A stretch of DNA of 59,805 nucleotides, counting the filler. It is 4 parts of 4 records of this genome, joined end to end, with 100 filler letters (N's around TTAATTAATTAA, not from the genome) between each part and the next. Parts side by side here need not be neighbours in the genome. Positions count along the whole stretch, not along the records: positions 52,280 to 59,805 come from SRR31156797_5222; 3 more parts are not named here. One strand, given 5' to 3'. Each line of letters opens with the position of its first letter. Positions within the stretch are counted from its first letter, which is position 1. The notes beneath the pieces were generated by a model. It worked only from the letters and a program-made list of their open reading frames with translations. It did no database searches and was not told the DNA's origin. The position numbers and the translations under genes were made by a program. This document shows positions 8,652-59,351 of this stretch, piece by piece.

Positions 8652-8733
8652 GTTTGACCGAGTGAAGACCGATGGATTATTATACCCGAAAACCTGACAA
8701 ATGTGAGATTTTCAGAGAAATCGGTTAGAAATC
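8652..8733 (+). repeat. 82-bp promoter-like direct repeat, copy 2
   Basis: GTTTGACCGAGTGAAgACCGATGGATTATTATA...AAATGTGAGATTTTCAGAGAAATCGGtTAGAAATC, 57 nt upstream of the GT8 gene. Confidence 0.9.
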
Positions 8734-8790
8734 GCGTTGACCACCGCATAATTCAAGGTCGGAAATTAACGCGGAAGAAGGGAGAATGAA

Positions 8791-9729
8791 GTGGATCCGG
8801 ACATCAATCTGGTTTACGGCGTCGACAAAATATTTTTTAAGCCAATGGTAACTTCGGCGATTTCCGCCATGGAAAATTTATCTGCCGGTCGAAAAATATC
8901 CCTTTATCTGGTTTATCGAGATATTCCAGCTGAAACCATTGATGTTGGAGTAAAATTCTTTCAAGAACGATATGGTATGAAGCTGAATGCGGTGAAGTTG
9001 CCGGCTGATAAGTCCAGGATTTTTACCAGTGAAATTTGTCCTGAAAAGCATATTTCCGATGCCATGTTCGACCGTTTGTTTATTCATGAAATTGTTCCGG
9101 AGATAGATAAAGCAATATATTTGGATGCGGACACAATTGTTAATGGCGACTTGAGCGAGCTGTATGATATTGACTTGGGCAAATCCAGCTTGGGAGCGGT
9201 GATTGAGCCGGGGTTTGACTATAAAATTGAGGAATATGGATATACTGCAACCCGGTTGGCGCATTTGGATATTGAATCCCACTATTTTAATTCGGGGGTA
9301 TTGCTATTAAATCTGCCTAAATTACGACAGATCGATCTGGTTAAGCGGTGTCAGGAAACCTATGTCAAATATAAAAAACATTTGATCTGGCTTGACCAGG
9401 ACATGTTGAATATTCTGTTTGGCGAGGAAACCTGTTACCTGCCGCCCAAGTTCAATTCTGAAGTATTCGATAATGCTTCCTTTTCAGCGGAGTTTAGAAA
9501 CTATTTTGATTTCTATGGCAAGACGGCGCCGTATAGTGACGAGGAGATTCAGCAGGCAATTGATAATCCTGCGGTAATCCACTATGTCGGGCCTTATAAA
9601 CCGTGGATACATCCGGGAGAGTATTATATCCACAAAGAAAAATACTGGAAATATTTTAATCTATCTCCCTGGCGCAGTGATGATTCCCTTTTAGTAGAAA
9701 AGAAATTGAGCGCCGGCAAACATGACTGA
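8791..9729 (+). CDS. Glycosyltransferase family 8
   Basis: YLDAD (DxD), YFNSGVLLLNL, DQDMLN, IHYVGPYKPW; GTG start with a GGGAG RBS. Confidence 0.92.
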   Translation: MDPDINLVYGVDKIFFKPMVTSAISAMENLSAGRKISLYLVYRDIPAETIDVGVKFFQERYGMKLNAVKLPADKSRIFTSEICPEKHISDAMFDRLFIHEIVPEIDKAIYLDADTIVNGDLSELYDIDLGKSSLGAVIEPGFDYKIEEYGYTATRLAHLDIESHYFNSGVLLLNLPKLRQIDLVKRCQETYVKYKKHLIWLDQDMLNILFGEETCYLPPKFNSEVFDNASFSAEFRNYFDFYGKTAPYSDEEIQQAIDNPAVIHYVGPYKPWIHPGEYYIHKEKYWKYFNLSPWRSDDSLLVEKKLSAGKHD

Positions 9730-11029: not shown

Positions 11030-12268
11030 ATGACTAAATGCCAGTCGCCGTCTTCCGTTATCAGAATCCTTGTGGTTGCGATTATTATCGACACCTTGGG
11101 ATTCGGCCTGATTTTTCCGATATTGCCGTCCTTGTTCATATCGCGTAACGCCGATTTGGTGAACATCCATACGAGCATCCAGTTGCGGCATTTTTACTAT
11201 GCCGTTTCATTAGCCTTGTGGCCGGTCGGCAATTTCTTCGGCACCCCATTCTTCGGCCGGCTTTCGGATAAATACGGCCGCAAGCCGATTCTCCTGGTTT
11301 GCCTTTCGTGCCTTTGCATCTGCTATTGTTTTTACGCCTTGGCGGTATATCTTCATTCGGCGGCGTTGTTTTTTATTATAAACCTGGTCGCCGGATTTTT
11401 CGGCGGCAACTATGATGTGGTGCAAGCGGCAGTAGTTGATATAAGTCCCCCCCAACAAAAAGCCCGCAATATCGGCTGGATCGCGAATGCCGCGGCAATT
11501 GGGATGATTGTCGGTCCGGTAGTTGCCAGTTTTACGACGGAGACTTCTATTCGCTCCTGGCTGACTCTGGAGACGCCGTTTATAATCGCGGCAATCCTTA
11601 CCGCTGCCAATGTGCTGATGATCCTCGCGCTGTTTAAGGAATCTTACGCCGGCAACCGGCTGTTGGACATTGGGATAACAAAAGCTCTGTCGGCATGCTC
11701 ATTCATCTTTACCGATGCCAGATTCAGCTTGACCGGACTGGCCTATTTCGGGCTGACTTTTGGCTGGGGGCTTTATTTCGTGGCAATGCCGTTAATCCTG
11801 GCGCAAGTCTTTAACCTGCATACCCATTATATCGGCTTGTTCTTTGGCGTCTTGGGATTGGGTAACGTGTTTGCCGTCGTTTTTGTGCAGCCGCTCTTAA
11901 CCAGGCGATATGACGCCCGGAAAATCTATGTTGCGGCGATCATTATCATGGCTGTTGGCATGATGATATGTTTGGCCGTGAAGCAATGGATCATGCTGGG
12001 CGTGCTGGCGTTTTTCATGGCCATGCTGCAGGTGCTCTGTATCAGTAATTTGCTCTCGATGTCCTCCGACCAGGGCGGCCGCGATGAATACGGCAAGATC
12101 ATGGGAGGGCTGGGGGCGCTGGCCAGCGTTGCCATGTTTACCTCCAGCATTATGCTGACCTGGATCATCAGCAAGCACATCTTTTTACCTTTTATCGTAT
12201 CCGGCATCTCGTTTATTATCAGCGGCGGTTTGTTTATGTATAAAAGCCGAAAGATAACCGACTCCTGA
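11030..12268 (+). CDS. MFS transporter, DHA1/TetA-like exporter
   Basis: DTLGFGLIFPILP, GRLSDKYGRKPILL, antiporter motif C-like GMIVGPVV. Confidence 0.88.
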   Translation: MTKCQSPSSVIRILVVAIIIDTLGFGLIFPILPSLFISRNADLVNIHTSIQLRHFYYAVSLALWPVGNFFGTPFFGRLSDKYGRKPILLVCLSCLCICYCFYALAVYLHSAALFFIINLVAGFFGGNYDVVQAAVVDISPPQQKARNIGWIANAAAIGMIVGPVVASFTTETSIRSWLTLETPFIIAAILTAANVLMILALFKESYAGNRLLDIGITKALSACSFIFTDARFSLTGLAYFGLTFGWGLYFVAMPLILAQVFNLHTHYIGLFFGVLGLGNVFAVVFVQPLLTRRYDARKIYVAAIIIMAVGMMICLAVKQWIMLGVLAFFMAMLQVLCISNLLSMSSDQGGRDEYGKIMGGLGALASVAMFTSSIMLTWIISKHIFLPFIVSGISFIISGGLFMYKSRKITDS

Positions 12269-12446
12269 CTTGGCCCTTACCTCAATTAAAAAATATCTAC
12301 ACCAAATGCCGGCCGAAATGAGATCTGAAAATTATCAGTAAAAAGTCGACCAGAAGGAACAATCAAAACTTCATTTCCGGAAAATAGCGATTAAAATCCA
12401 AGTCTATTATCTCTATTAAAGATCACTTTACCTCAACTTACAGATG

Positions 12447-12477
12447 AAGCACTTACGTCAATTGACATGAGTGCTTT
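12447..12477 (+). repeat. 31-bp direct repeat, copy 2 of the post-tRNA hairpin; putative right end of the islet
   Basis: AAGCACTTACGTCAATtGACaTgAGTGCTTT versus 7016-7046: 28/31 identical. Confidence 0.8.
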
Positions 12478-13117
12478 GTTAATGGCAAGTACGCATGGGC
12501 ATTAGTTTTGCCTGCTATGTTGTTAATGCACATTTCAGTATAGACAAAATATTGTGCAAGGCGAAATGTTGTGCGGTACATTGACAATTCATGCAATCGA
12601 CCATAAGCTCGAATATTGATTAATTTGATTAATCCAAGAGTTAAATATAATACATTCGTCGTATTGATTATTGCCTGTTGATGTAATACTATTTAAACTG
12701 TAAAAAAACCATTTCAGATAATTACAATTTTAAATATATACGAATTAACAGCCGAAAAACTCCTTGATTAGGGCGTTTGCGGTTTAGTACACGTGTTGCG
12801 GCTTCTGACAGGATGAAGAATATACAAAAAGCTTAAGGTGGAGCCAATTGGTATGTTGAATATCATAAAACTGCAACAAAGTCAGATGTTTAAGGATTTT
12901 GTAGGAGGGTATTAGAAAACTCACTTAAAATAAATAATAATTTCTATCAACTCCCCTTGCGTGCTTATATTTCTTGATAGGGCGGTGTTAACGGGCTAAA
13001 AAATCCAGGCTTTCTGTTAATGGTAACACCTTCTGATTATTATAGTTAAATTGAAAGGGATTGATAGAAAATTCGGCAAACATAATTACATAACCAGAAT
13101 CAGAAGGGAGTGAGAAA

Positions 13118-15160: not shown

Positions 15161-15260
15161 NNNNNNNNNNNNNNNNNNNNNNNNNNNNNNNNNNNNNNNN
15201 NNNNTTAATTAATTAANNNNNNNNNNNNNNNNNNNNNNNNNNNNNNNNNNNNNNNNNNNN
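15161..15260. other. Artificial contig spacer
   Basis: 44 N + TTAATTAATTAA (stops in all six frames) + 44 N; composition changes abruptly across it. Confidence 0.98.
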
Positions 15261-41817: not shown

Positions 41818-43197
41818 ATGACGAGTCAAAAAAACGGAAAAATATTAGCTATTGATGACAATGAGGATATATTATTCTCATTAAAATTACTCCTCAAACA
41901 ACACGTTGAATTAATCCATACAGAATCTGATCCCGAATTGATTCCTAAATTAATGAAACAGGAAGAGTATGATGTGATATTACTTGACATGAATTTCACC
42001 AAGGATGCAATTAGTGGTCAGGAAGGATATCATTGGCTAAATAAAATTCTCGAAATTGATGCAAGAGCAGTTGTTTTATTTATTACTGCTTATGGAGATA
42101 TTGAAAAATCAGTAAAAGCTATTAAAGCCGGAGCTACTGATTTTATTTTGAAACCATGGCAAAATGAAAAATTATTGGCTACAATTTCTTCAGCCATTAA
42201 ACTACGAAGATCGAAAGAAGAAGTAAGCGAACTTAAAACCAAACAAAAAGAATTAAATGCAGTTCTCGACCAACCATTTAATGATTTTATTGGTACCTCG
42301 CCAGAAATGCAACAAGTCTTTTCAACGATCACTAAGGTTGCTAAAACTGATGCCAATGTTTTAATTTTGGGCGAAAACGGAACAGGAAAAGAACTGGTAG
42401 CTCGCGCATTACACCGTAATTCGAGCAGAAGAGATGAAGTTTTTATAAGTGTAGACCTTGGGGCGATAAACGAAAACCTTTTTGAAAGTGAACTTTTTGG
42501 ACATGTAAAAGGTGCATTTACCGATGCCAGAACAGATAGACCTGGAAGATTTGAAATTGCCTCGGGAGGTACTCTATTTCTAGATGAGATTGGAAACTTA
42601 AGCTTGCCAATGCAGGCAAAACTATTAACCGTACTTGAAAGAAGAGAAGTTATTCGTGTTGGATCAAATAAACCTATTCCTATTGATATCAGATTAATTT
42701 GTGCTACTAATATGCCACTAAAACAGATGGCTGCCGAAGAAAAATATCGTCAGGATTTAGTTTATAGAATCAATACCGTAGAAATTGGCTTACCTGCACT
42801 TCGAGAGAGATACGAAGATATTCCTTTGCTAGCGAATCACTTTTTGGATATCTATTCGAAAAAATACAAAAAAAGAATCAACACCCTTACCAAAGCTTGT
42901 TTAAATAAATTATATGACTACGAATGGCCTGGTAATGTGAGAGAGCTGCAACACCAAATGGAACGAGCAGTAATTATGGCTGATGATAAGAACCTTGAAC
43001 CTGGCGATTTTCAAATTAGTACAGAAAGAGGACAACAAGATGATGTTGAGTTCGATTCATATAATCTTGAAGAGGTAGAGAAAAACATCATTCAAAAAGT
43101 TCTTAAAACCAATAAAGGAAACATATCAAAAGCGGCAGGTGAACTTGGACTGACGCGCACATCACTATACCGAAGACTCGAAAAATATGGTTTATAA
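41818..43197 (+). CDS. Sigma-54-dependent response regulator (REC-AAA+-HTH)
   Basis: LLDMNF receiver, GENGTGKE, ESELFGHVKGAFTDA, LFLDEIG, WPGNVREL, Fis-type HTH. Confidence 0.95.
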   Translation: MTSQKNGKILAIDDNEDILFSLKLLLKQHVELIHTESDPELIPKLMKQEEYDVILLDMNFTKDAISGQEGYHWLNKILEIDARAVVLFITAYGDIEKSVKAIKAGATDFILKPWQNEKLLATISSAIKLRRSKEEVSELKTKQKELNAVLDQPFNDFIGTSPEMQQVFSTITKVAKTDANVLILGENGTGKELVARALHRNSSRRDEVFISVDLGAINENLFESELFGHVKGAFTDARTDRPGRFEIASGGTLFLDEIGNLSLPMQAKLLTVLERREVIRVGSNKPIPIDIRLICATNMPLKQMAAEEKYRQDLVYRINTVEIGLPALRERYEDIPLLANHFLDIYSKKYKKRINTLTKACLNKLYDYEWPGNVRELQHQMERAVIMADDKNLEPGDFQISTERGQQDDVEFDSYNLEEVEKNIIQKVLKTNKGNISKAAGELGLTRTSLYRRLEKYGL

Positions 43198-44545
43198 AAG
43201 CTTTAGAATTAATTTTATTATTAGAATTATTGTTCTTTCTGCAACAATCTTTCTTCTGTTCTATCTTGTCGCAAAGAAAAGTTTATACTTTACGGCAAGT
43301 TTAACTATGATTGCCATAATATATCAGGTGTATGAAATTATCAGATATGTAGAAAAAACCAACCGATTGCTCAAAAACTTTCTAGAATCTATTCGATATT
43401 CCGATTTTACTCGAAATTTTCAGGTTCAAGGATTAGGAAGTTCTTTTGATAAATTACAGGAATCTTTCAATGCAGTTATTACGGATTTTCAAAAAATTCG
43501 TGCAGAAAAAGAGGAACATTACTTTTATCTGCAAACCGTAATTCAACACATTGGTATTAGTTTGATCGCATTTCATCGCGATGGTAAGGTTGAGATGATT
43601 AATAATGCTTCAAAAAAGTTATTTCAAATTAGTAATCTAAAAAAAATTCAGGATCTTAAATCATTTAATCCTGAACTTGTTGATGCTTTGCTAAAATTAA
43701 AACATGGTGAAAACACTCTTGTTAAAGTTGTCGATAACGAAGACATTTTAAAACTGGCTGTTTACGCTACCGAATTTAAAATCAACAATCGTCAGGTAAT
43801 TCTTGTATCAATTAAGAATATACAATACGAACTTGAAGAACAGGAAATAGAGTCATGGCAAAAACTAATTCGTGTATTAACTCATGAGATCATGAATTCA
43901 ATTACACCTATTTCATCATTGTCTACAACCCTTACAACAATACTTGATGACTTTGGTGAGAACAATACTAATAAATTCCAGGATGACGATCTGGAAACTC
44001 TTAACGAGGTTAAAATGGCTTTAGAAACCATTCACAAGAGAAGTTCCGGTTTACTTCATTTTGTTGATACCTATAGAAATCTCACCAAGATCCCTAAACC
44101 AAGTTTTGGTATTTTTCAGGTTCAAAAATTATTTGACAACATCCACCGATTAATGGAGGAAGAAATCAGAAGAAATAACATTGAGTGCAATATTAGTATC
44201 AATCCTGAATCAATTGAGTTATCTGCCGACGAACAATTAATAGAGCAAGTTTTAATCAATTTATTAAAAAATTCTATTCATGCTCTTGAGAATACTTCGA
44301 ATCCAAAAATTGAAATGAAAGCCTTTATGAATAAACGAGGAAGAATCTCAATTCAGGTAAGTGATAATGGGCAAGGTATTATTAAGGAAGTTTTAGACAA
44401 AGTTTTTATTCCATTCTTTACAACCAAACCAAAAGGATCGGGAATTGGTCTTAGCCTTTCAAAACAAATATTGCGACTGCATGGAGGTACTATAACAGCT
44501 CAATCTGAACCGAACGAAAGAACTAGTTTTACCTTAACTTTTTAG
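43187..44545 (+). CDS. Sensor histidine kinase (2 TM, PAS-like, HisKA, HATPase)
   Basis: LTHEIMNSITP, INLLKNS, DNGQG, FIPFFTTK, GSGIGLSL. Confidence 0.95.
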   Translation: MVYKSFRINFIIRIIVLSATIFLLFYLVAKKSLYFTASLTMIAIIYQVYEIIRYVEKTNRLLKNFLESIRYSDFTRNFQVQGLGSSFDKLQESFNAVITDFQKIRAEKEEHYFYLQTVIQHIGISLIAFHRDGKVEMINNASKKLFQISNLKKIQDLKSFNPELVDALLKLKHGENTLVKVVDNEDILKLAVYATEFKINNRQVILVSIKNIQYELEEQEIESWQKLIRVLTHEIMNSITPISSLSTTLTTILDDFGENNTNKFQDDDLETLNEVKMALETIHKRSSGLLHFVDTYRNLTKIPKPSFGIFQVQKLFDNIHRLMEEEIRRNNIECNISINPESIELSADEQLIEQVLINLLKNSIHALENTSNPKIEMKAFMNKRGRISIQVSDNGQGIIKEVLDKVFIPFFTTKPKGSGIGLSLSKQILRLHGGTITAQSEPNERTSFTLTF

Positions 44546-45817: not shown

Positions 45818-45917
45818 NNNNNNNNNNNNNNNNNNNNNNNNNNNNNNNNNNNNNNNNNNNNTTAATTAATTAANNNNNNNNNNNNNNNNNNNNNNNNNNN
45901 NNNNNNNNNNNNNNNNN
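45818..45917. other. Artificial contig spacer
   Basis: 44 N + TTAATTAATTAA + 44 N. Confidence 0.98.
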
Positions 45918-45918
45918 A

Positions 45919-47022
45919 AGTTACCTGAAATTAAATCCGGGAGAAGCCAAAGAAATAAAACATTTTAAAAACCAGTTTGATCATTACCTTTCTTATTCAA
46001 CAGAAGAATTATCACAGGCGAAAAAACATGCCCTTGCGCAACGAATTATCAAAAAACTGGAGCAAGTTGATGATAAAAAAGGCAAAAGCATAGCCTTAAA
46101 ACAATTGTTAAGGTATGCCGCTGTTGGATTATTATTTTTTGTAATTGGTGGTGGTTTAATTTACTTGTATTTAGGAGACAGGCATCCAACTTTTTATGTT
46201 GAGAACCCTGTGGTATCTTCAAATATCCATGAACCGGTATTAATTATTGATAACCAACAAGAAATTCAACTGAACGGTAACAAACCAGAGTTGGATTATT
46301 CAGGAGACAAGGATATTATTTTAAACAACACAGAAAAAATTGAAAAAAGAGGTGGAACAAATATTCCGGAAATCAATACTCTGGTAGTTCCCTACGGTAG
46401 CAGGTCAACTATAACCCTGGCTGATGGATCAAAAGTGTGGTTAAATGCAGGAAGTAGACTTATTTACCCTTCAAATTTTATCGACGACCGCAGAGAGGTA
46501 TTTCTTATAGGTGAAGCCTTTTTTGATGTAAATCGAAATGAAGAAAAACCATTCATTATAAATACTTCAGAAATTGAGATTGAAGTTTTGGGAACACGGT
46601 TTAATGTTTCTGCATATCCCGAAGATGGCTCAGTACAAACAGCATTGGAAGAAGGAAGTGTAGAAATAAACTATATCAACGCCACTATATTCGACAGAGG
46701 CGTGTTGTTAAAACCAGGTCAATTGGCATCGTTTAGTAAACAAAAGAAAGAAACAAATGTAACAAACGTTGACATACGGGATTATACACTATGGACCGAT
46801 GGCTTGTTTAGTTTCTCTGGCTCAGATTTAGGTCGGATTGTTAAAAAACTGGAGCGTTATTATAACATTCAGATCAGATATCGCGATCCAATGAATGCGA
46901 CTATTCGGATTTCGGGGAAACTTGATATCACTAAAAGTTCAGATGAAGTTCTCGGCTATCTTTCTCAAATTACAGATCTTGAATTTTCAAAATTAAATAA
47001 CTGGCAGTATGAAATAAGGTAA
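45919..47022 (+). CDS. FecR family anti-sigma factor, 5'-truncated
   Basis: Frame is open from the contig edge (SYLKLNPGEAK...); TM YAAVGLLFFVIGGG; LADGSKVWLNAGS, GEAFFDV, VLGTRFNV, LERYYN. Confidence 0.92.
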   Translation, partial: SYLKLNPGEAKEIKHFKNQFDHYLSYSTEELSQAKKHALAQRIIKKLEQVDDKKGKSIALKQLLRYAAVGLLFFVIGGGLIYLYLGDRHPTFYVENPVVSSNIHEPVLIIDNQQEIQLNGNKPELDYSGDKDIILNNTEKIEKRGGTNIPEINTLVVPYGSRSTITLADGSKVWLNAGSRLIYPSNFIDDRREVFLIGEAFFDVNRNEEKPFIINTSEIEIEVLGTRFNVSAYPEDGSVQTALEEGSVEINYINATIFDRGVLLKPGQLASFSKQKKETNVTNVDIRDYTLWTDGLFSFSGSDLGRIVKKLERYYNIQIRYRDPMNATIRISGKLDITKSSDEVLGYLSQITDLEFSKLNNWQYEIR

Positions 47023-47026
47023 AAGA

Positions 47027-47058
47027 AAACCGAAGAGTGGTGGCACACTCTCCGGTTT
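47027..47058 (+). promoter_or_regulatory. Stem-loop between fecR and susC
   Basis: AAACCG-a-AGAGTG-gtggca-CACTCT-c-CGGTTT. Confidence 0.6.
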
Positions 47059-47105
47059 GCAATTCATTAAAATTATTGTAGTAATAACATTAATCGAACA
47101 AATTT

Positions 47106-50100
47106 ATGAAAAAAAAATTGTTAACTGATTTCCGGTACCCGGAAGTCATTAAAAAAGCGTATCTAATTATGCGTCTAACACTTGTACTAATAGTTGGTTT
47201 CGTTTTAAGTGTGAGTGCAAATACTTACTCACAGACTACACGTCTTGATGTTCAACTAAAAAACTCAACCATAGGAGAAGTGATTGAGTACATTGAAGAC
47301 AACAGCAAGTTCGTGTTCTTGTACAAAAATGAAGACCTTGATGTTACTAAGCGAGTAGATATTGAGCAAATTAATGCTCCTATTGAGGATATCTTAAAGG
47401 AAATGTTTAAAGGAGAGAATGTAGATTACGAAGTATACGACAGACAAGTTGTAATTCGTAAGAAAGAGGAGTTAAAACAAAATGCACAGCAGGAGGGAAA
47501 GAATATAACCGGTGTTGTTACCGACGCAAATGGAGAGCCCATTCCTGGTGCTTCAGTAATTGTGGTTGGAACTACAGTTGGAACTGTTACCGATATTGAC
47601 GGGAATTTTAACCTTACGATTCCATCTGATGACGTAAATCTTCAGTTTTCATTTGTAGGATTGGAAACACAGGAGGTTCCGGCTGCAGGAAAAACTCACT
47701 TTGTAATTGTATTGCAAGAATCTTCCATTGGTTTGGAAGAAGTTATTGCCATTGGTTATGGTACTGTTAAAAAGAAGGATTTAACCGGTTCGGTTGGAAG
47801 TGTAACAACCGAATCAATTGTAGAAAGAGGAACAACCAACCCAATGCAGGCAATGCAAGGACAAATGGCCGGTGTGCAAATTTCTACTTCAACCGGTAGG
47901 ATTGGCGATGGATTTGATATTACAATTCGTGGTAAGAACTCAATGGATCCGGATGCTAAACCACTTTACATTGTTGATGGTGTACCTACGGATGGGATTG
48001 ATTTTTTAAATCCTCAGGATATTGAGCGAATTGACGCATTAAAAGATGCATCGTCAACAGCTATTTATGGTTCACGTGGTTCAAACGGGGTAATTATTGT
48101 TACCACAAAAAGTGGAGCAGGTGTAAAAAGGAAAATGAATGTTACCTATAACGGGTATTATGGTGTTAGAGAAGCCGCACGTTTGCCTAAAATGATGGAT
48201 GGTGAAAAGTGGTGGTACTATCACCAATCTGCTTATCTTGCAACTGCCAAAAAAGATCCGGATCTTGGATATGTAACACCTGAAACTTTGTATGATGCGG
48301 TTATAGGCAAAAACAACCCGCTTTTGTTGGAACGCGCAACTAATAATGAAACTTTTGATTGGTATGATGCAGTTCTGGAAACAGGTCAGCAACAGAATCA
48401 TTTTCTGTCTTTTTCAGGTATGAGTGAATCTGGTATTTCTTACAACTTTGGGATTGGTTACCAAAATGAAACTGGTAATATCCCCAATGAAGAGTTGGAT
48501 AAATATTCAATTAAAGCCAGTATTAATCACAAAATTAGTCCAAAATTTACTATGGGAACAACTTTCTCAGCTTCTTTAACCGAACAAGAAATGGGAAGTT
48601 CATTAGCTATGCGTGAGGCCTTTAGATTAAATCCATTTCTTACTCCTTACGGATTAGATGGTGAATTGTATCCGCAACCTGGTAAATTAAAAGATGAAGA
48701 TGGTAATTACCTGATCAATAAAACCAGTACATACAACCCATTGTTGGAGATGGAGAATTCAACTGATAACCAACGTAGGTTTAATGGTATTGGTAATGCA
48801 TTTCTGCAATATAAACCATTAGAGTGGCTTACGCTTAAAACAACCTTTAGTGTTGGATACGATCAGTTAAGAACAGGCCGTGCCTGGGGTAAACTTACCA
48901 ATACAGGTAATAGCAATAAAGTAGACGATGAACCGACTCCCTCAGGTGAAAAATCACACGCTGAGAATTTGAACTATACCTGGGATAACCAAGTAGATAT
49001 AAACAAAGTTTATGGCGAACATTCATTTGCTTTTACGGGTGTACAAAGTTTCTTTACAAGCAGAACAGAATCGTCTTATTTGTACTCAAAATATCATCCA
49101 TTCGATACTGGTTACCATAACCTTGGATCAGGACCTCAGGAAACGTTTAATATTCGTTCAAACTATATTAAACAAACACTTGCTTCTTATTCATTGCGTT
49201 TGAATTACTCTTATAAAGGAAAATACCTCATTACTGTATCAAACAGGTGGGATGGTTCTTCTTTACTGGCTGAAGGTAAAAAGTGGGATTCATTCCCGTC
49301 AGGAGCTTTGGCATGGAGACTTGGTGAAGAAGAATTTATGCAGGAAATTGGGGCTTTGTCGAACCTGAAACTGAGAGTTAGTTATGGTTTTACCGGAAAT
49401 AATGTTGTGTCGCCATATTCAACTGTAAACAAACTTGATTCGCAGACTTATTACGAATACTTCGGAACTAATGCTAATGGTTGGTTACCTTCAACTATTG
49501 CCAACTCGGCATTAACCTGGGAAAAAACAAGTGAAATTAACTTTGGTATCGATTACGGATTTTTTGGGAACCGTATTTACGGTAACATCGATTTATATAA
49601 CCGTTTGTCGGATGATCTGTTAATGGAGCAAAAGTTACCTAAAGAATCAGGTTGGGATGTAATGGAAGCCAATGTTGGTTCTGTTAGAAATAAAGGCGCA
49701 GAGTTTATGTTAACTACCATTAATGTTGATAAAGGTGACTGGAAATGGGAAACATCTTTAACATTTACTAAAAACGTTAACGAAATAGTATCGCTTTACG
49801 GACAAGATGAAGTTGATGATATTGGTAACGATTGGTTTATTGGAGAATCAATTGATGCTCAGTATAACTATAAATTTAATGGAATTTGGCAAGCTGATGA
49901 AACTGAAGAGGCTGCGTCTTATGGCCAGACAGAAGGACAGGCTAAGGTGGTTGATCAAAACAACGATGGTAAAATCATTGCCACCGATGATAAAATAATC
50001 TTAGGATCAGCTGATCCTGATTGGACAGGTAGTTTTACTTCCCGTTTAACCTATAAAAACTTCGATTTATCGCTTAACTTGTATACAGTGCAAGGAGCTT

Positions 50101-50510
50101 ATGTATATAGCGGATTCCACAGCAACTTTACAAATACCCGCGACAGGGGACGTCAAAAGTTAGATATTGCAGACTGGTATATTCCGGAAAACAATGCGGG
50201 AATTCCTGCACAGTTCTCGAATGAATATCCACAAGCCAGGAATATGGGAACTTATTGGAGAAATGATGGCGTTGGTTATTACCGTGATGCATCATTTGTA
50301 AAGATTCAAAACATAACCCTTGGCTATAGCTTCGACTCTTCTTTACTGGAGAAATTACACATGAAAAAATGTCGCATTTATGCTAATGTCCTGAATCCAT
50401 TTGTATTTACTGATTACGATGGGTATGATCCGGAATGGGCCGGTGCATCATACAACGACGGTGGTGTAAGCTCAATTGTTTATCAGTTTGGTGTAAATGT
50501 TAGTTTTTAA
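47106..50510 (+). CDS. susC: SusC/RagA TonB-dependent transporter with N-terminal signalling (STN) extension
   Basis: STN-like N-terminus, GTVTDIDGNF, IGYGTVKKKDLTGSV, LKDASSTAIYGSRGSNGVIIVTTK, LTWEKT, terminal GVNVSF. Confidence 0.96.
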   Translation: MKKKLLTDFRYPEVIKKAYLIMRLTLVLIVGFVLSVSANTYSQTTRLDVQLKNSTIGEVIEYIEDNSKFVFLYKNEDLDVTKRVDIEQINAPIEDILKEMFKGENVDYEVYDRQVVIRKKEELKQNAQQEGKNITGVVTDANGEPIPGASVIVVGTTVGTVTDIDGNFNLTIPSDDVNLQFSFVGLETQEVPAAGKTHFVIVLQESSIGLEEVIAIGYGTVKKKDLTGSVGSVTTESIVERGTTNPMQAMQGQMAGVQISTSTGRIGDGFDITIRGKNSMDPDAKPLYIVDGVPTDGIDFLNPQDIERIDALKDASSTAIYGSRGSNGVIIVTTKSGAGVKRKMNVTYNGYYGVREAARLPKMMDGEKWWYYHQSAYLATAKKDPDLGYVTPETLYDAVIGKNNPLLLERATNNETFDWYDAVLETGQQQNHFLSFSGMSESGISYNFGIGYQNETGNIPNEELDKYSIKASINHKISPKFTMGTTFSASLTEQEMGSSLAMREAFRLNPFLTPYGLDGELYPQPGKLKDEDGNYLINKTSTYNPLLEMENSTDNQRRFNGIGNAFLQYKPLEWLTLKTTFSVGYDQLRTGRAWGKLTNTGNSNKVDDEPTPSGEKSHAENLNYTWDNQVDINKVYGEHSFAFTGVQSFFTSRTESSYLYSKYHPFDTGYHNLGSGPQETFNIRSNYIKQTLASYSLRLNYSYKGKYLITVSNRWDGSSLLAEGKKWDSFPSGALAWRLGEEEFMQEIGALSNLKLRVSYGFTGNNVVSPYSTVNKLDSQTYYEYFGTNANGWLPSTIANSALTWEKTSEINFGIDYGFFGNRIYGNIDLYNRLSDDLLMEQKLPKESGWDVMEANVGSVRNKGAEFMLTTINVDKGDWKWETSLTFTKNVNEIVSLYGQDEVDDIGNDWFIGESIDAQYNYKFNGIWQADETEEAASYGQTEGQAKVVDQNNDGKIIATDDKIILGSADPDWTGSFTSRLTYKNFDLSLNLYTVQGAYVYSGFHSNFTNTRDRGRQKLDIADWYIPENNAGIPAQFSNEYPQARNMGTYWRNDGVGYYRDASFVKIQNITLGYSFDSSLLEKLHMKKCRIYANVLNPFVFTDYDGYDPEWAGASYNDGGVSSIVYQFGVNVSF

Positions 50511-50530
50511 TTAGCGGTAAGAATCAATAA

Positions 50531-52156
50531 ATGGAATTACAAATGAAAAAAATAATAATAATACTTGGATTTATAGGTTTGATTTTCGCTTCATGTTCCG
50601 ATTTCCTTGAAGAAGAAAATCTATCGAGTGTAACTGCTGAAGAATTTTATGTGAAAGCAGAAGGTTATAATGCCTTGGTTAACGCGAATTATTCGCAATT
50701 AAGAGAGATTTTTGGGGTTGAAGCCTGGATGTTTATGGCAGGAACCGATTTATATGTAGAAGGAAGAGATCCAATGCCTGAAGGACTCTCAAAATATTTT
50801 GAATTAGGACCCAACTCTGAAGGTGTAGATCAATTATATAATGCCTGTTATAAGGCTATTCAATCGGCTAACATGGCTTTGTATTATGCCGATCTTACTG
50901 AACAAACGAGTGATCTTGATCAGAAAAAAGGAGAGGTTCAGTATTTACGTGCATTATCGTATTTCTTGCTTGTTCAAAGTTATGGCGGCGTAGCTCTTGT
51001 AGAAGATTATATTTCTGAACCGCAACTGGTGTTTGACAGAAATAGCGCCGAAGAGATTTACTCCTTTGTTATTACTGAACTTGAATCGGCTTTGAACCTG
51101 GTTTCTTCAGGCGATTACAATGGTCGCGTTACAAAACGTGCTGTTCAACATCTGCTTGCAAAGGTTCATTTAACCAGAGGATATGAAAGTTATGGATCAG
51201 CTAATGATTTTTCTGATGCTGCCACGTATGCCGACGCTGCCATAGCCGGTCAGGGGCTTACCTCATCATTTGAAGAACTTTGGACACCCGGAAATGAGGA
51301 TAACGATGAAGTCTTGTTTTCTGTTCAATATAGCGCTGCAAGCATTAGCACCGATCCAACAGGTCTTGGGCATCAGCAGGCCAGTTACTATAGTTCATAC
51401 CTTGGGGGTAGTGAAGTTGCGGGCAAAGCTCCATTCCGGAATTTTGCAACCACTGTTACCCATCATGCGCTTGATTTGTATACAGAAGACGATGAACGGT
51501 TTTACGCAACTTTTATGATTGAGATCTTTGACAGGTACTATGACTACTTCGATGTTGAAGACCATAGTACATTAGCCGTAAAACATTATTACGCGCCAAA
51601 ATGGGCAAGTTCGGAACAAGATTTGGCAGATTATGCTGCAGCAAATCCTGAAGCCACCATACATCCGTGGGGGCAATACATTCCTTCGGTAAGTCGCACA
51701 AATGATTATGATTGTATCCCAACTAAAAAGTTTGATGATCCTAAATCAGAATTTGGGCGAAATGTTAGTACTCGGGATCTTATTTTGGCTCGACTGGGTG
51801 AAACTTACCTGTTAGCAGCGGAAGCTTATTTCAAAGCCGGAGATCCGGGTACTGCAGCTAATCGTATTAATGAGGTGAGAGGAAGGGCTAATACAACCCT
51901 GATTACTTCAGGAGATGTTACAATCGATTTTATTCTGGATGAACGTGCAAGAGAATTATTAGGAGAGTATCACAGGTGGTTCGACCTGAAACGGACTGGT
52001 AAATTGGTTGAAAGAGCTTCATTACATAGCTATGTTATTGAAGAAAGTAACTTCGATGGCAACAATGGAGAATTAAAAATTCTTAGACCGATTCCGCAGG
52101 AAGCGATTGATTTGAATCAGAACAAAGATTTCCCACAAAATCCAGCTTACAATTAG
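50531..52156 (+). CDS. susD: SusD/RagB lipoprotein
   Basis: Lipobox FAS-C, LRALSYF, RLGETYLLAAEA, ILDERARELLGE, RWFDLKR, RPIPQ, QNPAY. Confidence 0.95.
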   Translation: MELQMKKIIIILGFIGLIFASCSDFLEEENLSSVTAEEFYVKAEGYNALVNANYSQLREIFGVEAWMFMAGTDLYVEGRDPMPEGLSKYFELGPNSEGVDQLYNACYKAIQSANMALYYADLTEQTSDLDQKKGEVQYLRALSYFLLVQSYGGVALVEDYISEPQLVFDRNSAEEIYSFVITELESALNLVSSGDYNGRVTKRAVQHLLAKVHLTRGYESYGSANDFSDAATYADAAIAGQGLTSSFEELWTPGNEDNDEVLFSVQYSAASISTDPTGLGHQQASYYSSYLGGSEVAGKAPFRNFATTVTHHALDLYTEDDERFYATFMIEIFDRYYDYFDVEDHSTLAVKHYYAPKWASSEQDLADYAAANPEATIHPWGQYIPSVSRTNDYDCIPTKKFDDPKSEFGRNVSTRDLILARLGETYLLAAEAYFKAGDPGTAANRINEVRGRANTTLITSGDVTIDFILDERARELLGEYHRWFDLKRTGKLVERASLHSYVIEESNFDGNNGELKILRPIPQEAIDLNQNKDFPQNPAYN

Positions 52157-52179
52157 ACAGATTTTTTTAGATAAGTTTG

Positions 52180-52279
52180 NNNNNNNNNNNNNNNNNNNNN
52201 NNNNNNNNNNNNNNNNNNNNNNNTTAATTAATTAANNNNNNNNNNNNNNNNNNNNNNNNNNNNNNNNNNNNNNNNNNNN
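52180..52279. other. Artificial contig spacer
   Basis: 44 N + TTAATTAATTAA + 44 N. Confidence 0.98.
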
Positions 52280-52522: not shown

Positions 52523-54367
52523 TTATAGCTCTCCTGGATTCTTCGGAAGAGAGACATGGACGGACAAGCCTCCATTCTGCCTGTTCCTTGCGGTTATGCT
52601 CCCTTTATGCTTCTTCACTATGCTATGGCAGATGGAGAGACCCATTCCCAAGTTTTTCCCACCTGTTTTTGATGTGAAGAAGGGAAGGAAAATGGATTGG
52701 AGTTCCTTTTCCGGCAGTCCCGGTCCGCTGTCCGCTATCCGGATGTGAACCGATTCCTCGTCGTCTGTGTCCGACTCCCAGCGGACTTCAAGCTCTCCGT
52801 TCTCTTTTACTGCCTCGAAACTGTTTTTCAGAAGATTCAAAAGGAGCTGTTTTATCTCGAGCTTGTTCGCGGATATGATAAGTTCGTCTTCTTCCTTCTC
52901 CCTGACTTTCAGGACAATATTCCTTTTCCTGGCCTCGTAATTAATCAGCTGAACTATCCCTCTGACAGTCTCTCCCAGGTCGAAGCTTTGGATGCGGTCC
53001 TGCTCATTCCGGGGGGAGAGGGCCACCAGATTTTCCAGAATCAGTGAGATATCCCGAATCTCCTCCTCGATATTGATCAGTGAGTCTGTTATCTGGGGAT
53101 TACTGTTATTAAAGCGGATATTTTCGATGTAATAGTGAATGATCTCCAGGGGATTATTGATCTCATGGGCCACGCCGCTTGCCAGGAGGCCCACGGATGC
53201 CAGGTTCTCCGAGAGCTGGATCTTCTTGCTGAGCTCGTCATAGGCGCTTATGTCCTCGATGATCAGGATCGTTCCGATCAGCTTCTCCCCCTCTTTAATG
53301 GGAAACAGGGTAATGTTATTCAGCGTAGCGCCGTCGGCCGTCTGAAGCTCTTCGTTGAAAAAACGTTTCTCCAGCCCCCTTGAGAAAAAGGGGCGGAGCC
53401 GTCCGGTCATCTCCTCATTGTCAGGACCCAGAAGGGCTTTGAGAGAGCTGTCTCCGGCGCCCTCTCTACGGGGAAACAACCGGGCCGCCTGTTTGTTGAC
53501 CAGCTTCACGTGCTCTTCATTGTTGATCAGAATCAGGTTGACCGGCAGATCGTTCAAAATCGTCTCATTGAATTTCAGAAGCTCCGTAAACGACTGTTGC
53601 GTAAGGTACTGAAGGCTTTCGGTAATCTGGGTGTAGGCCAGCTTGATCAGCGCTATCCTGTCAATCTTATCCGCTTCCTCAGTGGCGAAAATATAACCGT
53701 CCCGGATAACCGACACCCTGTCGGCAAAGAAGAAAATATCGTCAATCCTGTGAGTGATGAAAACGATGCCCATCCCTTTTTCCCTGCGCTTTTTGAGGAT
53801 GCTGTGAACCAGCTTCAGGGTCCGGGCGTTCAGTTTTTCCAGAGCCTCGTCAATAATGAGAAAGTCCGGTTTCTTATAGAGGGCTTTCAGGATATCCACA
53901 AGAACCAGATCGCTCAGCCCCAGACGACGGACAGGGGCTTCTATATCGATGTCGAAATCCTCTCCGATGGATTCGAGAAAAGCGCTGACCTTCTTTATCT
54001 GCCCTTTTCTGGTCTGCAGCGGAAAGACTGATATACTGTCATCCAGGATAATGTTTTCCCATACCTTAAAATCCCGGACCAGAGGGTTCTGCTGGCTAAC
54101 ATAATAGATATTCAGTTCTCTGGCCTTCTTTCTGTTCAGTGTGACAGCTGTAAGGCCGTTAAGCAGGACCTTCCCTCCCGAAGGCTGAAAGTACCCGCTG
54201 AGGATATGGGCCAGGGTGGATTTCCCGGCACCGTGTTCTCCTACTACCGCATGGATTTCACCTGCCCGGATCTTGAAATTCGTCTTTTTCAGGACTTCGT
54301 AACTGCCATAGCTGTAGCAGAGGTCCTCTAAGGCTATATTCCGGAGCTTATTTCTTTGGGCTTTCAT
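52523..54367 (-). CDS. Fusion protein: sugar-ABC ATPase domain + PAS + histidine kinase
   Basis: aa ~10-245: Walker A GEHGAGKST, Q-loop VSQ, Walker B LIIDE, H-loop ITH, DRVSVIRDG. aa ~268-375: PAS-like. Then GVAHEINNPL (H401), NLLKNS, DSGPG, FLPFFTSK, GMGLSI. No TM segment. Confidence 0.9.
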   Translation of the reverse strand: MKAQRNKLRNIALEDLCYSYGSYEVLKKTNFKIRAGEIHAVVGEHGAGKSTLAHILSGYFQPSGGKVLLNGLTAVTLNRKKARELNIYYVSQQNPLVRDFKVWENIILDDSISVFPLQTRKGQIKKVSAFLESIGEDFDIDIEAPVRRLGLSDLVLVDILKALYKKPDFLIIDEALEKLNARTLKLVHSILKKRREKGMGIVFITHRIDDIFFFADRVSVIRDGYIFATEEADKIDRIALIKLAYTQITESLQYLTQQSFTELLKFNETILNDLPVNLILINNEEHVKLVNKQAARLFPRREGAGDSSLKALLGPDNEEMTGRLRPFFSRGLEKRFFNEELQTADGATLNNITLFPIKEGEKLIGTILIIEDISAYDELSKKIQLSENLASVGLLASGVAHEINNPLEIIHYYIENIRFNNSNPQITDSLINIEEEIRDISLILENLVALSPRNEQDRIQSFDLGETVRGIVQLINYEARKRNIVLKVREKEEDELIISANKLEIKQLLLNLLKNSFEAVKENGELEVRWESDTDDEESVHIRIADSGPGLPEKELQSIFLPFFTSKTGGKNLGMGLSICHSIVKKHKGSITARNRQNGGLSVHVSLPKNPGEL

Positions 54368-55830: not shown

Positions 55831-55846
55831 TGGCATGGCCTTTGCA
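55831..55846 (+). promoter_or_regulatory. Sigma-54 (-24/-12) promoter of the ABC operon
   Basis: TGGCATGGCCTTTGCA versus consensus TGGCACG-N4-TTGCW (GG-N10-GC intact). Confidence 0.85.
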
Positions 55847-55908: not shown

Positions 55909-57045
55909 ATGAAACGGAATCTTTTATTTCTGGCTCTCTTTGTTGCAGGGTGTTTTACGCTGACCGCCGAGGGGCAGAAGGATACGGCTGCGGCAGAGGA
56001 GACGGTTGTCGTCGCGGAAGCGGATTTGCCGGAGATCAGCGACAGCGACCTCGCCCTGGCAAAAGGACCTAACGGGGAGGAAGCCGTAAGGGCCGGGGAG
56101 ATCAGCCTGAGCGGGTCTCAGGTCGCCCTGTTAAAAGAGGGCGGATACAAGGCGGCTCTGCTCTGGGCCGGCTCCGGTGAATGGTACAACGCTCTGTCCA
56201 AAGGAGCGGAAGAAGAGTTCGCCCGTCTGGGAATCAAGGTCGTATCCAATGCGGACGCCCAGTTCGATCCCGCCAAACAGGCGACCGATGTGGAAACCTG
56301 TATGGCCCTCAGGCCCGATGCCATACTGACTCTTGTGGTCGATCCCGTATCCGGCGCCAGGGCTTTCCGTCCGGTAGTGGACAACGATGTGACCCTTGTA
56401 TTCGCGGATAACGGAGTGGACGGCTACAAGGCCGGCAGTGAATATGTCAACGTTGTGACAGGGGATCACTACGGAATGGGACGAGCCGCCGCGGAACTTA
56501 TGAATGAGGCCTTGGACGGTGAAGGGAAGATAGGATTCATCTACCATGACGCGGATTTCTTTGTGACCAACAACAGAGACTCGGCCTTTAAGAAAGACAT
56601 CGAGAACAAGTATCCCGGCATGGAGATCGTGGCGGAAAAGGGCTTCTCAGAGGAGAGCGCCACGGAAGAGGTCACCAACGCCATGCTGACCCAGCATCCC
56701 GATATCACCGGTATCTACGTGGCCTGGGATGTGGCCGCGGAAGGCGTCGTAGCGGCCCTCCGCTCCGGCGGATGGAAGGATGTGAAAGTCGTTACTCATG
56801 ATCTGGGCGCCACGCTCGATCTGGATATCGCCAGAAACGGAAATGTTTACGGCAAGGTGGCGGACGTCCCCTACGACATCGGCGTCACCATGGCCCGTTC
56901 GGCGGCTCTGAAGCTTCTGGGCGAAGAGGTTCCTCCCTTTGTCGTGGTTCCCTACCTGAAAATGACGAGTGAGAATATCCGGGAAGTCTGGAATCAGTCC
57001 CTTAGAAAAGATCCTCCCAAGAGTGTTCTGAAGTCCCTGAACTGA
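55909..57045 (+). CDS. Sugar ABC transporter substrate-binding protein (RbsB-like)
   Basis: AAAGGAG RBS before ATG 55909; signal MKRNLLFLALFVAGCFTLTA-EGQKD; DAQFDPAKQ, DHYGMGRAAA, IYVAWDVAAEG. Confidence 0.9.
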   Translation: MKRNLLFLALFVAGCFTLTAEGQKDTAAAEETVVVAEADLPEISDSDLALAKGPNGEEAVRAGEISLSGSQVALLKEGGYKAALLWAGSGEWYNALSKGAEEEFARLGIKVVSNADAQFDPAKQATDVETCMALRPDAILTLVVDPVSGARAFRPVVDNDVTLVFADNGVDGYKAGSEYVNVVTGDHYGMGRAAAELMNEALDGEGKIGFIYHDADFFVTNNRDSAFKKDIENKYPGMEIVAEKGFSEESATEEVTNAMLTQHPDITGIYVAWDVAAEGVVAALRSGGWKDVKVVTHDLGATLDLDIARNGNVYGKVADVPYDIGVTMARSAALKLLGEEVPPFVVVPYLKMTSENIREVWNQSLRKDPPKSVLKSLN

Positions 57046-58157: not shown

Positions 58158-59351
58158 ATGTTCTTACAATCACTGATAAACAGAAATCCTGAATTTATAA
58201 AGGCGGCGGTTCAGTTCCATCAGGAGCTGAAAATCCCCTCGAACTGCTGCGTGCTCGATCTGGACGCGGTCCGGAAGAACGCTTCCCATATCAGCAGCAG
58301 CGCCGCGGCGCGGGGCATGACGACCATGGGTATGACCAAACAGATCGGCAGGCACAAGCCGGCCCTGAAGGCCATCGCCGAAGGCGGTATCGACAGCTTT
58401 GTCACCGTCGATATCAAAGGACTGAGGTCCCTGAGCTCGGGAGGGTATAAAATCGGGCATGCCGGGCATCTGGTGCAGATCCCTCTGGGGGATATCCCCT
58501 TCTGCCTCTCCCGCAAACCGGAGTACTGGACCGTCTTCAACAGGGAGAGCCTGGACAGGATCAACAGGGAGGCGGCCGCACAGAATCTCACCCAGAAAAT
58601 CCTTCTCAGGATATACGGGGAGGGTGACCATTTTTATGAAGGCCATGCCGGAGGCATCTCGGTCGGCGAGCTGGAATCGGTCGTTTCCTACATGGACGGT
58701 CTCAGCCATCTGCAGTTTGCGGGGCTGACCACATTCCCCTGTATGCTGTTCAATCAGGAGAGGGGAACCGTAGAGAAAACCCATAACCTGGGCACCCTCA
58801 GCAAAGCCGCTTCCCGAATGGTCAGCCTGGGATTCAACGACCTGGAGGTAAACGCTCCGGGAACAACCTCCTCGGAGGTCCTTTCCCTCCTGGCGGAGGA
58901 GGGGGTGACCCAGGTGGAACCGGGGCATGGCCTTACGGGGACCACCCCTCTGCACGCGGTCAGGGAACTGGAGGAGCTTCCCGCGGTTCTCTACCTTTCC
59001 GAGCTGGCCCACATACACGGGAATACCCCCTATTTCTACGGCGGCGGTCTGTACATCGATCCTGTCTTCCCCTCTTACGCCCCCTCCGTTCTGACGGCCT
59101 CTGCTGCGGATAATATTCTGGAACGCCGATTCAAAGCACAGATTCCTCCCTATGAGGCGATCGATTACTACGGAATGATCCACGGCGCCGAAGAGGCGGG
59201 CTGCCGGATCGGCGATGCGGTGGTGCTGGGCTTCCGGCCCCAGGCCTTCGTCCGCACGTCTTATGTCGCTTCCATCTCTGGGATCTCAAAGGGAAAGCCG
59301 GTGCTGGAAGGAATCAGCGATTCCAACGGAGGAGAGCTGCAATGGCCGTAG
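58158..59351 (+). CDS. YhfX-like PLP-dependent enzyme (alanine racemase fold)
   Basis: LDLD, MTKQIGR (putative PLP Lys), GHLVQIP, GLTTFPC, NAPGTTS, EPGHGLTGTTPLH, YLSE, YGGG, IDYY, FRPQAF. Confidence 0.82.
   Translation: MFLQSLINRNPEFIKAAVQFHQELKIPSNCCVLDLDAVRKNASHISSSAAARGMTTMGMTKQIGRHKPALKAIAEGGIDSFVTVDIKGLRSLSSGGYKIGHAGHLVQIPLGDIPFCLSRKPEYWTVFNRESLDRINREAAAQNLTQKILLRIYGEGDHFYEGHAGGISVGELESVVSYMDGLSHLQFAGLTTFPCMLFNQERGTVEKTHNLGTLSKAASRMVSLGFNDLEVNAPGTTSSEVLSLLAEEGVTQVEPGHGLTGTTPLHAVRELEELPAVLYLSELAHIHGNTPYFYGGGLYIDPVFPSYAPSVLTASAADNILERRFKAQIPPYEAIDYYGMIHGAEEAGCRIGDAVVLGFRPQAFVRTSYVASISGISKGKPVLEGISDSNGGELQWP

Follow-up and report, generated by a model that had tools for sequence, protein, structure and literature searches.

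Two-component histidine kinases are thought to sense by periplasmic, membrane or cytoplasmic ligand domains of their own, or through accessory proteins. Here we describe a family of histidine kinases, predicted to be soluble, which carry at their N-terminus a nucleotide-binding domain (NBD) of an ATP-binding cassette (ABC) sugar importer. The gene described here lies at positions 52523 to 54367 on the minus strand of a composite DNA stretch of 59,805 nucleotides, hereafter the window, and encodes in one uninterrupted open reading frame of 614 amino acids, with no stop, an NBD of the CUT2 ATPase type followed by a PAS domain and the HisKA and HATPase_c domains of a kinase. An earlier note on this DNA had proposed this architecture, and Pfam together with a structural model bear it out. 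The kinase family is real, large and uncharacterised, its genes are linked to a sigma-54-dependent response regulator and to CUT2 importer operons, and it is a variant of transporter-coupled two-component sensing. With a probability of roughly one half, we favour a model in which a kinase dimer attaches by its NBDs to the permease dimer of the importer and reports the permease conformation via the linker and the PAS domain to the dimerization and histidine phosphotransfer (DHp) helices; the cell would probably read the importer itself to sense the sugar.

Domain architecture, NBD origin and distribution of the kinase family

In Pfam, ABC_tran matches residues 26-176 with 72.6 bits (cut-off 25), HisKA residues 394-451 with 27.4 bits (cut-off 26.9) and HATPase_c residues 503-610 with 79.7 bits (cut-off 26.4), the PAS_10 match at residues 269-373 staying below its cut-off (18.5 versus 22.1 bits). 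The AlphaFold2 model, built with 35 homologues (mean predicted local distance difference test, pLDDT, of 79), is confident for the NBD at residues 10-245 and displays a clear PAS fold at residues 258-372, homologues bearing PF08448 or PF13426. No transmembrane helix is present in the model of the 614-residue kinase, which is thus predicted to be wholly soluble, with neither a periplasmic nor a membrane part. Structural comparison by Foldseek matches the N-terminal half to ABC NBDs, e.g. LptB (TM-score 0.87 on the target), and the C-terminal half to the PAS/LOV kinases 4gcz and 3a0r; no solved chain covering both halves was found by Foldseek, the query TM-score being at most 0.35.

The earlier proposal that the first ~245 residues correspond to the first NBD (NBD1) of CUT2 ATPases agrees with the NCBIfam alignments, in which residues 10-250, including the stretch that leads to the second NBD (NBD2), align with LsrA (11-242 of 510), YtfR (5-236 of 492) and AraG (8-252 of 504), and also with XylG, MglA and RbsA, while residues 214-611 align with AtoS. 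All NCBIfam scores are far under the equivalog cut-offs, the CUT2 ATPase models scoring 98-147 bits against cut-offs of 586-850 and the best of them, LsrA, 147.4 bits against 586. A CUT2 transport ATPase is a chain of ~500 amino acids with two NBDs, whereas the kinase has one NBD joined to a PAS-kinase portion. In this portion, H401 within GVAHEINNPL is invariant in 35 of 35 sequences, and invariant residues of the catalytic domain are N511 and N515, which we take to be the N box, D546, G548 and G550 (presumably G1), P562 and F563 (presumably the F box) and G574 and G576 (presumably G2). These features suggest a HisKA-type histidine kinase of class I, similar to NtrB and AtoS, for which kinase activity is predicted from the sequence.

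The NBD of the window kinase has kept Walker A (G43-T51, with K49), the Q-loop (Q92), Walker B (D173-E174) and the H-loop (H206), and has a degenerate signature (LGLSDL, not LSGGQ) and D-loop (ALEKL, within DEALEKL), a state found here as well as family-wide; the motif states and residue numbers of the earlier note, including H401, were correct. We compared 70 different NBDs of the family with NBD1 and NBD2 of 51 different adjacent transport ATPases (Table 1). In these adjacent CUT2 transporters, the catalytic residues of NBD1 and the signature of NBD2 together imply one consensus ATP site. The kinase NBD has retained the catalytic set of NBD1 and lost the signature and the D-loop.

Table 1. 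Motifs of the kinase NBDs and of both NBDs of adjacent CUT2 transport ATPases
Motif	Transport NBD1	Transport NBD2	Kinase NBD
Walker A	GENGAGKS	Lys to Arg, 86%	GEHGAGKS, Lys 100%
Q-loop	Gln 100%	Glu	Gln 100%
Walker B	Asp-Glu	Asp 96%, Glu 72%	Asp 100%, Glu 98%
H-loop	His 100%	Ser 92%	His 94%
Signature	weak	LSGGNQQK, 98-100%	relaxed: L100 x L67 S57 D64 R72
After Walker B	DEPT, DEPT(S)AL	DEPTRGID	DEALEKL

In a FastTree phylogeny of 70+51+51 rows, the kinase NBDs form one clade beside NBD1 with a Shimodaira-Hasegawa-like support of 99, to be read with a long-branch warning, and this placement points to a single origin of the kinase NBD from CUT2 NBD1. The conservation profile shows that the block following the Q-loop (QxNxLxxxFTVAENL) is at least as strongly conserved in the kinase family as in NBD1, and that the helix preceding the PAS domain (residues 235-247, IDRIALIKLAYTQ; family consensus IDKINLIRLAYTQ) is more conserved than the same stretch of the transport NBD1. 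In ABC importers, the block after the Q-loop faces the membrane subunit. Judged from its motifs, the kinase NBD probably still binds ATP, and a canonical hydrolysing ATP sandwich in the kinase homodimer is unlikely, since each Walker A would face a degenerate signature.

The fusion is not restricted to the window. ABC_tran, HisKA and HATPase_c occur together, at a length of ~580-645 amino acids, in 117 of the best 120 proteins of a 90%-identity collection, the three exceptions being two fragments (P0006 and P0033) and one protein without a HisKA entry (P0050). A profile of 35 members was also run against 1.84 billion 50%-identity cluster representatives; the best 150 all match with E ≤ 1.4e-108, and 127 of them have 585-646 amino acids and match end to end, from which it follows that the family is larger than 150. 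Database labels, assigned automatically, read 'ATP-binding cassette domain-containing protein' or 'histidine kinase'. Named sources are Oceanispirochaeta, Spirochaetaceae, Spirochaetales, candidate division KSB3 and Desulfomarina, and locus titles add Thalassospirochaeta, Sphaerochaeta and a metagenome-assembled genome labelled Treponema. Among the matches listed, the closest relatives of the window kinase come from unclassified Oceanispirochaeta (67% identity), and the closest relatives of its neighbour genes lie in a Spirochaetaceae locus (L004), which suggests a spirochaete as the source of the kinase contig.

Five genomes hold one to three full-length copies each (matches over residues ~11-600), a number that fits one sensor per transporter, and at least 12 of 301 genomes sampled from the phylum to which locus L001 belongs have a match at E ≤ 1e-55, four candidates having been scored per genome. 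Among the best 120 listed proteins of more than 1075 amino acids we found no permease-NBD-kinase or other longer fusion, which is weak evidence, and in 101 Chloroflexota genomes the six candidate loci with long open reading frames all encode ordinary two-NBD CUT2 ATPases, some with extra domains. A protein atlas lists further clusters combining ABC_tran, HisKA and HATPase_c, i.e. from Actinomycetota (826 and 852 amino acids, the latter with GAF_2) and from Spirochaetota (515 amino acids), so that NBD-kinase fusions may have arisen or diversified more than once.

Linkage to CUT2 importer operons and gene content of the window

For the analysis of conserved synteny we used 86 sources (the window, six genome loci and 79 metagenome loci) with 84 kinase genes. 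Metagenome loci were found by alignment of the N-terminal 300 residues and genome loci by the pattern GVAHEINN, the latter giving six full-length relatives among 80 loci listed; the sample includes duplicates, e.g. L003 is the same contig as L147, and its 80 full-length kinases correspond to 71 different sequences. All 76 kinase genes for which at least 1 kb of upstream sequence is available are preceded immediately, on the same strand, by a gene for a sigma-54-dependent response regulator. Of the 23 kinase genes flanked by 6 kb or more on each side, 22 have a CUT2 ATPase of at least 450 amino acids and a permease encoded within 8 kb; where 6 kb on one side was enough, this pair is present for 44 of 58. 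The neighbouring transport ATPases carry two NBDs. A -24/-12 motif of sigma-54 promoters is located on the divergent strand within 600 nucleotides of the regulator gene in 36 of 63 non-identical loci (23 by the strict motif) and on the regulator's own strand in two of 63, the background being 0.035 per 630 nucleotides. Both the CUT2 operon and the sigma-54 activator, whose linkage the earlier note had raised as a point to be checked, are thus conserved neighbours. This conservation shows functional coupling to the transporter and does not by itself identify the contact partner. From the promoter motif, we predict that the kinase-regulator system induces the transporter genes. A comparator, L007, has beside its CUT2 operon a binding protein, a membrane HAMP-PAS kinase and a sigma-54-dependent response regulator, the classical solution to the same task.

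Several variations of the gene order were seen. In two loci, L125 (5352-7151) and L127 (6203-8002), a 265-residue single-NBD ATPase and a permease lie downstream of the kinase gene and replace the two-NBD CUT2 ATPase. In one clade (L081, L083, L084, L085, L088 at 8405-9397 and L123 at 11824-12777), a lone CUT2 permease gene stands convergently directly after the kinase gene, besides the permease of the divergent operon; its product could be the other half of a permease heterodimer, or could serve the sensor exclusively. The permease of the window is closest to this lone type (62% identity to L088:8405-9397, branch support 98). On some contigs (L010, L113, L145, L004, L095), two kinase-regulator pairs, or two CUT2 operons, adjoin each other, and in L010 the two pairs are divergent, each directed toward its own transporter.

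The features of the window are collected in Table 2. The contig of the kinase gene (7526 nucleotides) encodes in order the C-terminus of an HD-domain protein, which is presumably HD-GYP-like by its motif, the minus-strand kinase and regulator, and an operon that diverges from these on the plus strand. The regulator gene overlaps the kinase gene by 4 nucleotides; its longest open reading frame extends to 55836, homologues align from residue ~50 of this long frame, and position 55689 is the probable start (441 amino acids). The promoter-like element lies 63 nucleotides ahead of the position at which the binding-protein gene probably begins. Over the whole window, matches to the sigma-54 consensus are no more frequent than expected (32 observed, 41.6 expected), so that the weight of this element derives from the same motif being in the same place in the 36 related loci, and a search for repeats between the regulator gene and the promoter gave weak AT-rich repeats only. 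The binding protein is probably a lipoprotein, as predicted from its N-terminus, MKRNLLFLALFVAGC, in which we assume a lipobox. Between the permease and ATPase genes of the operon sits a gene for a YhfX-like protein, which has no BLAST match in 85 related loci and may hint at an amino-sugar or amino-acid-derived substrate. The separate canonical ATPase gene, which the earlier note had placed from 59342 onward, is recognised by Pfam and NCBIfam and is cut after 154 amino acids. No PhoU-like gene was seen by Pfam among the locus genes.

Table 2. Features of the window, with positions counted along the whole stretch
Feature	Position	Strand	Basis or remark
Artificial linkers, 100 nucleotides each, N44-TTAATTAATTAA-N44	15161-15260, 45818-45917, 52180-52279		four contigs joined
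C-terminal fragment of HD-domain protein, 68 codons	52281-52487	convergent with kinase gene	HD_5, E 8e-5; cut by contig start
NBD-PAS-HisKA-HATPase_c histidine kinase, 614 amino acids (P0001)	52523..54367	-	uninterrupted open reading frame, Pfam, AlphaFold2, full-length homologues
HATPase_c catalytic domain, residues 460-608	52544..52990	-	Pfam, invariant columns
DHp/HisKA helices, residues 374-448, predicted phospho-acceptor H401 in GVAHEINNPL	53024..53248	-	Pfam, conservation, AlphaFold2
PAS domain, residues 258-372	53252..53596	-	AlphaFold2 fold, weak PAS_10, PAS families of homologues, Foldseek
NBD-PAS linker, residues ~246-260	53588..53632	-	AlphaFold2 pLDDT <50 at 247-260
ABC NBD, residues 10-245, NBD1 type of CUT2 ATPases	53633..54340	-	Pfam, NCBIfam, AlphaFold2, motifs, tree
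Sigma-54-dependent response regulator: REC, AAA+ sigma-54 interaction domain, Fis-type helix-turn-helix	54364..55689	-	Pfam, NCBIfam
Sigma-54 promoter-like -24/-12 element TGGCATGGCCTTTGC	55831..55845	+	1 mismatch to TGGCAC-N5-TTGC
CUT2-type sugar-binding protein (Peripla_BP_4)	55909..57045	+	Pfam
CUT2 permease (BPD_transp_2; AraH/RbsC-like), 321 amino acids	57135..58100	+	Pfam, NCBIfam
YhfX-like protein, fold of pyridoxal-phosphate enzymes (Ala_racemase_N + YhfX-like_C)	58158..59351	+	Pfam
Canonical CUT2 transport ATPase, NBD1, first 154 amino acids	59342..59805	+	Pfam, NCBIfam; cut by contig end

The remaining contigs do not share this context. The content of G and C changes stepwise along the window, from ~50% (1-15 kb) to ~34-40% (15-51 kb, the two middle contigs) and back to ~50% from 52.4 kb; together with the artificial linkers, this makes the record look like a mixed bin in which gene context is invalid across the joins. 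The low-GC contigs (15261-45817 and 45918-52179) carry a Bacteroidota-type gene set, i.e. PorP/SprF adjoining a 3169-residue SprB-repeat protein with a CHU_C type IX secretion signal, a MacB-type ABC exporter set together with a second sigma-54 regulator/kinase pair (41818-44545), and FecR with a SusC-like receptor (STN, Plug) and SusD. Since four contigs are joined by artificial linkers, these SusC/SusD genes are unlinked to the kinase gene, and a Bacteroidota host, considered because of SusC/SusD/FecR and the type IX secretion genes, is ruled out by the linkers and by the step from 34% to ~50%.

A proposed docking model and its alternatives

We propose a model according to which the kinase would be the sensor of a two-component system switching on the neighbouring CUT2 sugar importer operon through the sigma-54-dependent response regulator and a sigma-54 promoter, the input module being its single soluble ABC domain of the NBD1 type. 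The two NBDs of the kinase dimer would plug into the NBD sites of the permease dimer, replacing the motor ATPase or competing with it. Docking of the sugar-loaded binding protein would shift the conformation of the permease, this shift would alter the spacing or orientation of the NBDs, and the change would be passed on via the conserved NBD-PAS linker to the PAS dimer and the DHp helices, where the balance of kinase versus phosphatase activity would be set. Such a docking in place of the ATPase had been put forward in the earlier note, of which the architecture, the motifs, the NBD1 origin, the separate motor ATPase and the conserved linkage hold, while for the contact with the permease a predicted complex gives weak support.

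For this complex, two permease copies and residues 1-250 of the kinase, as a variant of the structure prediction suggested earlier, reached a score of 0.53 (0.56, 0.51 and 0.53 in the individual runs) against 0.00 for the best of three controls, with a partner pLDDT of at least 77 and an agreement of the runs in at least 83% of contacts. In the calibration, the mark was reached by 58 of 80 solved complexes and by two of 110 mismatched pairs; at scores of 0.60 or below, only seven of the 80 solved complexes passed, together with both passing mismatches. Passes in this range are wrong in most cases, except where the proposed complex was probable to begin with.

Several observations speak against docking on the permease. 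The pass of the predicted complex is a weak one, and because NBD-permease pairs resemble solved ABC complexes it may reflect this likeness alone. A full motor ATPase is encoded at every locus with enough flanking sequence, so that the permease sites would usually be taken already, and docking of the kinase would require competition or a distinct pool of permease. Pure docking does not explain why the catalytic Glu (98%) and the H-loop His (94%) are kept despite the loss of the signature. The Walker A pattern GxxxxGK[ST] is missing from L145:1869-3686, a single member among 71 different ones of the family. Ligand sensing could be a property of the PAS domain itself. The linkage has gaps as well: a sigma-54 motif on the divergent strand was not found in 27 of the 63 loci, and 14 of the 58 loci lack the full ATPase-permease pair. 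In three of these 14, the contig ends within the ATPase gene (the window, L005, L116); three have a large ATPase with no permease by BLAST query (L145 twice, L154), two only the 265-residue single-NBD ATPase with a permease (L125, L127), one a permease only (L123) and one a 369-residue ATPase only (L139); in four, nothing lies within reach (L094, L120, L140, L143; upstream flank below 2 kb).

The fusion could in principle be an artefact, i.e. a chimeric reading frame from a faulty assembly or a fused gene that is decaying and has no function, as the window is an artificial concatenation of contigs and comes from metagenome-type data. The nearest linker, however, falls outside the kinase gene, whose own contig occupies 52280-59805. 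The run from which this stretch may derive contains a contig of exactly 7526 nucleotides that is identical to it and likewise ends at 59805. A contig from an independent study (X2, 8109 nucleotides) spans this contig completely with 27 substitutions in 7526 nucleotides and no indel; it stops at the same end (59805) and has its extra 583 nucleotides at the opposite end. The runs X2, X4, X6 and X9, in which the stretch is present at least in part, are labelled coral metagenome. The junction of NBD and PAS domain (~53588-53635), which the earlier note had singled out as the place to look for a misassembly or a stop, is bridged additionally by short contigs of two further runs (X3, 53461-54050; X4, 53181-53639), and neither defect was found in this comparison of assembled contigs, as opposed to raw reads. 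With the three domains together in 117 of the best 120 homologues, end-to-end matches in 127 of the best 150 cluster representatives and invariant key residues, the artefact reading is already refuted by the homologues, the second-study contig and the cluster representatives, and we give it practically no weight.

A functional kinase might act as a cytoplasmic sensor with no contact to the transporter, the NBD serving as a module for the ATP/ADP energy state or the PAS domain binding an intracellular sugar or metabolite; the linkage would then reflect the regulated target, together with an NBD that arose locally when the adjacent ATPase gene was duplicated. The conservation of Walker A, the A-loop aromatic residue, the Q-loop, Walker B and the H-loop is consistent with selected nucleotide binding, the PAS domain is always present, the kinase is predicted to be soluble, and the weak pass of the permease complex also leaves room for this explanation. 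An energy sensor, however, needs no tie to one transporter family across phyla, and the CUT2 linkage is nearly universal; the one to three copies per genome suit a sensor for each transporter, induction of a high-affinity importer by an intracellular ligand requires prior uptake, and the block after the Q-loop, which faces the membrane subunit in ABC importers, stays conserved. We regard a purely cytoplasmic sensor as rather unlikely, though deserving serious attention. We consider it less likely still that the kinase senses flux or activity through the motor ATPase, its NBD pairing with the transport NBD2, which has the canonical signature, or binding the assembled transporter and reporting ATP turnover in a Bce-like manner. 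The kinase NBD keeps exactly those elements (Lys, Q-loop, Asp-Glu, His) that form the CUT2 consensus site with the NBD2 signature, and a complete ATPase is always encoded nearby; NBD2 is, however, covalently tethered to its own NBD1, so that an NBD1 from outside must compete with an intramolecular partner.

Returning to the docking model, a wider proposal, which we put forward tentatively and which in our view falls a little short of an even chance, is that the ABC importer acts as a transmembrane receptor made of binding protein, permease dimer and NBD-kinase dimer. The permease would be borrowed as a transducer, the degenerate NBD would reverse the coupling of the power stroke into control of autophosphorylation, and the kinases would represent a widespread, undescribed input class in Spirochaetota, Desulfobacterota, KSB3 and other phyla. 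If this is true, the motor domain of an ABC importer used as the plug of a kinase is a different route of sensing, by which a soluble kinase gains extracellular information and the conformational coupling between permease and NBD is reused for signalling. As the family is large and modular, with one sensor per sugar transporter, it could supply sugar biosensors and help to assign substrates to CUT2 transporters that are still uncharacterised.

Comparison with known transporter-coupled kinases

The earlier note knew of no characterised kinase with a fused ABC NBD, and our search of full-text literature, mostly outside subscription journals, found no description of an ABC NBD as a kinase input domain. 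A term search gave no occurrence of 'ABC' in an archaeal two-component census (PMC5847659), KsAmt5 and BceS but no NBD fusion in a 2021 review on sensing diversity (PMC8534201), and no occurrence of 'ATPase' in a review on binding-protein signalling (PMC8050422).

Compared with the CUT2 ATPases RbsA, MglA, XylG, AraG and LsrA, the kinase shares the alignment to NBD1, the type of Walker A and the H-loop, and differs in having one NBD instead of two, a lost signature and D-loop, and a PAS-kinase in the place of NBD2. The transporter-like receptor UhpC works with UhpB, and transporter modules also serve as kinase input in KsAmt5, which has an Amt domain (PMC8534201), and in CbrA/CrbS, in which an SLC5 domain is fused to the kinase. 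For CbrA/CrbS, this is described in PMC7096432 and PMC5715377. In contrast to these three systems, in which a membrane-spanning transporter domain is fused or acts as partner, our kinase has the soluble motor domain only and would rely on a separate permease for its membrane part.

Sugar-binding proteins of the Peripla_BP_4 type give the signal in LuxP-LuxQ, TorT-TorS, ChvE-VirA and XylFII-LytS, the last of which induces a xylose ABC operon (PMC8050422). In LuxQ, TorS, VirA and LytS, an extracytoplasmic ligand domain between transmembrane helices touches the binding protein, unlike in the window kinase, which has no such domain. In the Bce-type systems of Firmicutes (BceAB-BceS/BceR), it is the ABC transporter that senses; the kinase monitors its activity and switches the transporter genes on (PMC8534201, PMC9169098 and PMC3023708). 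BceS is an intramembrane-sensing kinase with two transmembrane helices and no other input domain, contacting a MacB/FtsX-type permease in the membrane and having no fused NBD; the system described here has an importer with a binding protein, a predicted soluble kinase with NBD and PAS inputs, and a sigma-54-dependent regulator.

PstSCAB-PhoU-PhoR of E. coli and Salmonella is the nearest known mechanism. There, an ABC importer serves as sensor, and the state of the PstB NBD reaches the cytoplasmic PAS domain of a kinase that controls the importer's own regulon; according to PMC13577022, PhoU links PstSCAB to PhoR by way of the PAS domain, and PstSCAB signals through alternate conformations, as stated in the title of PMC5775613. 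In the Pst system, however, the NBD is the working transport ATPase, PhoU is an adaptor and PhoR is membrane-anchored, whereas in the family described here an extra copy of the NBD is fused directly before the PAS domain of a kinase with no predicted transmembrane helix, and the importer is a CUT2 sugar importer. If the docking model is true, the NBD-kinases are a covalent, minimal counterpart of the long-debated PstB-PhoU-PhoR relay, possibly easier to study structurally.

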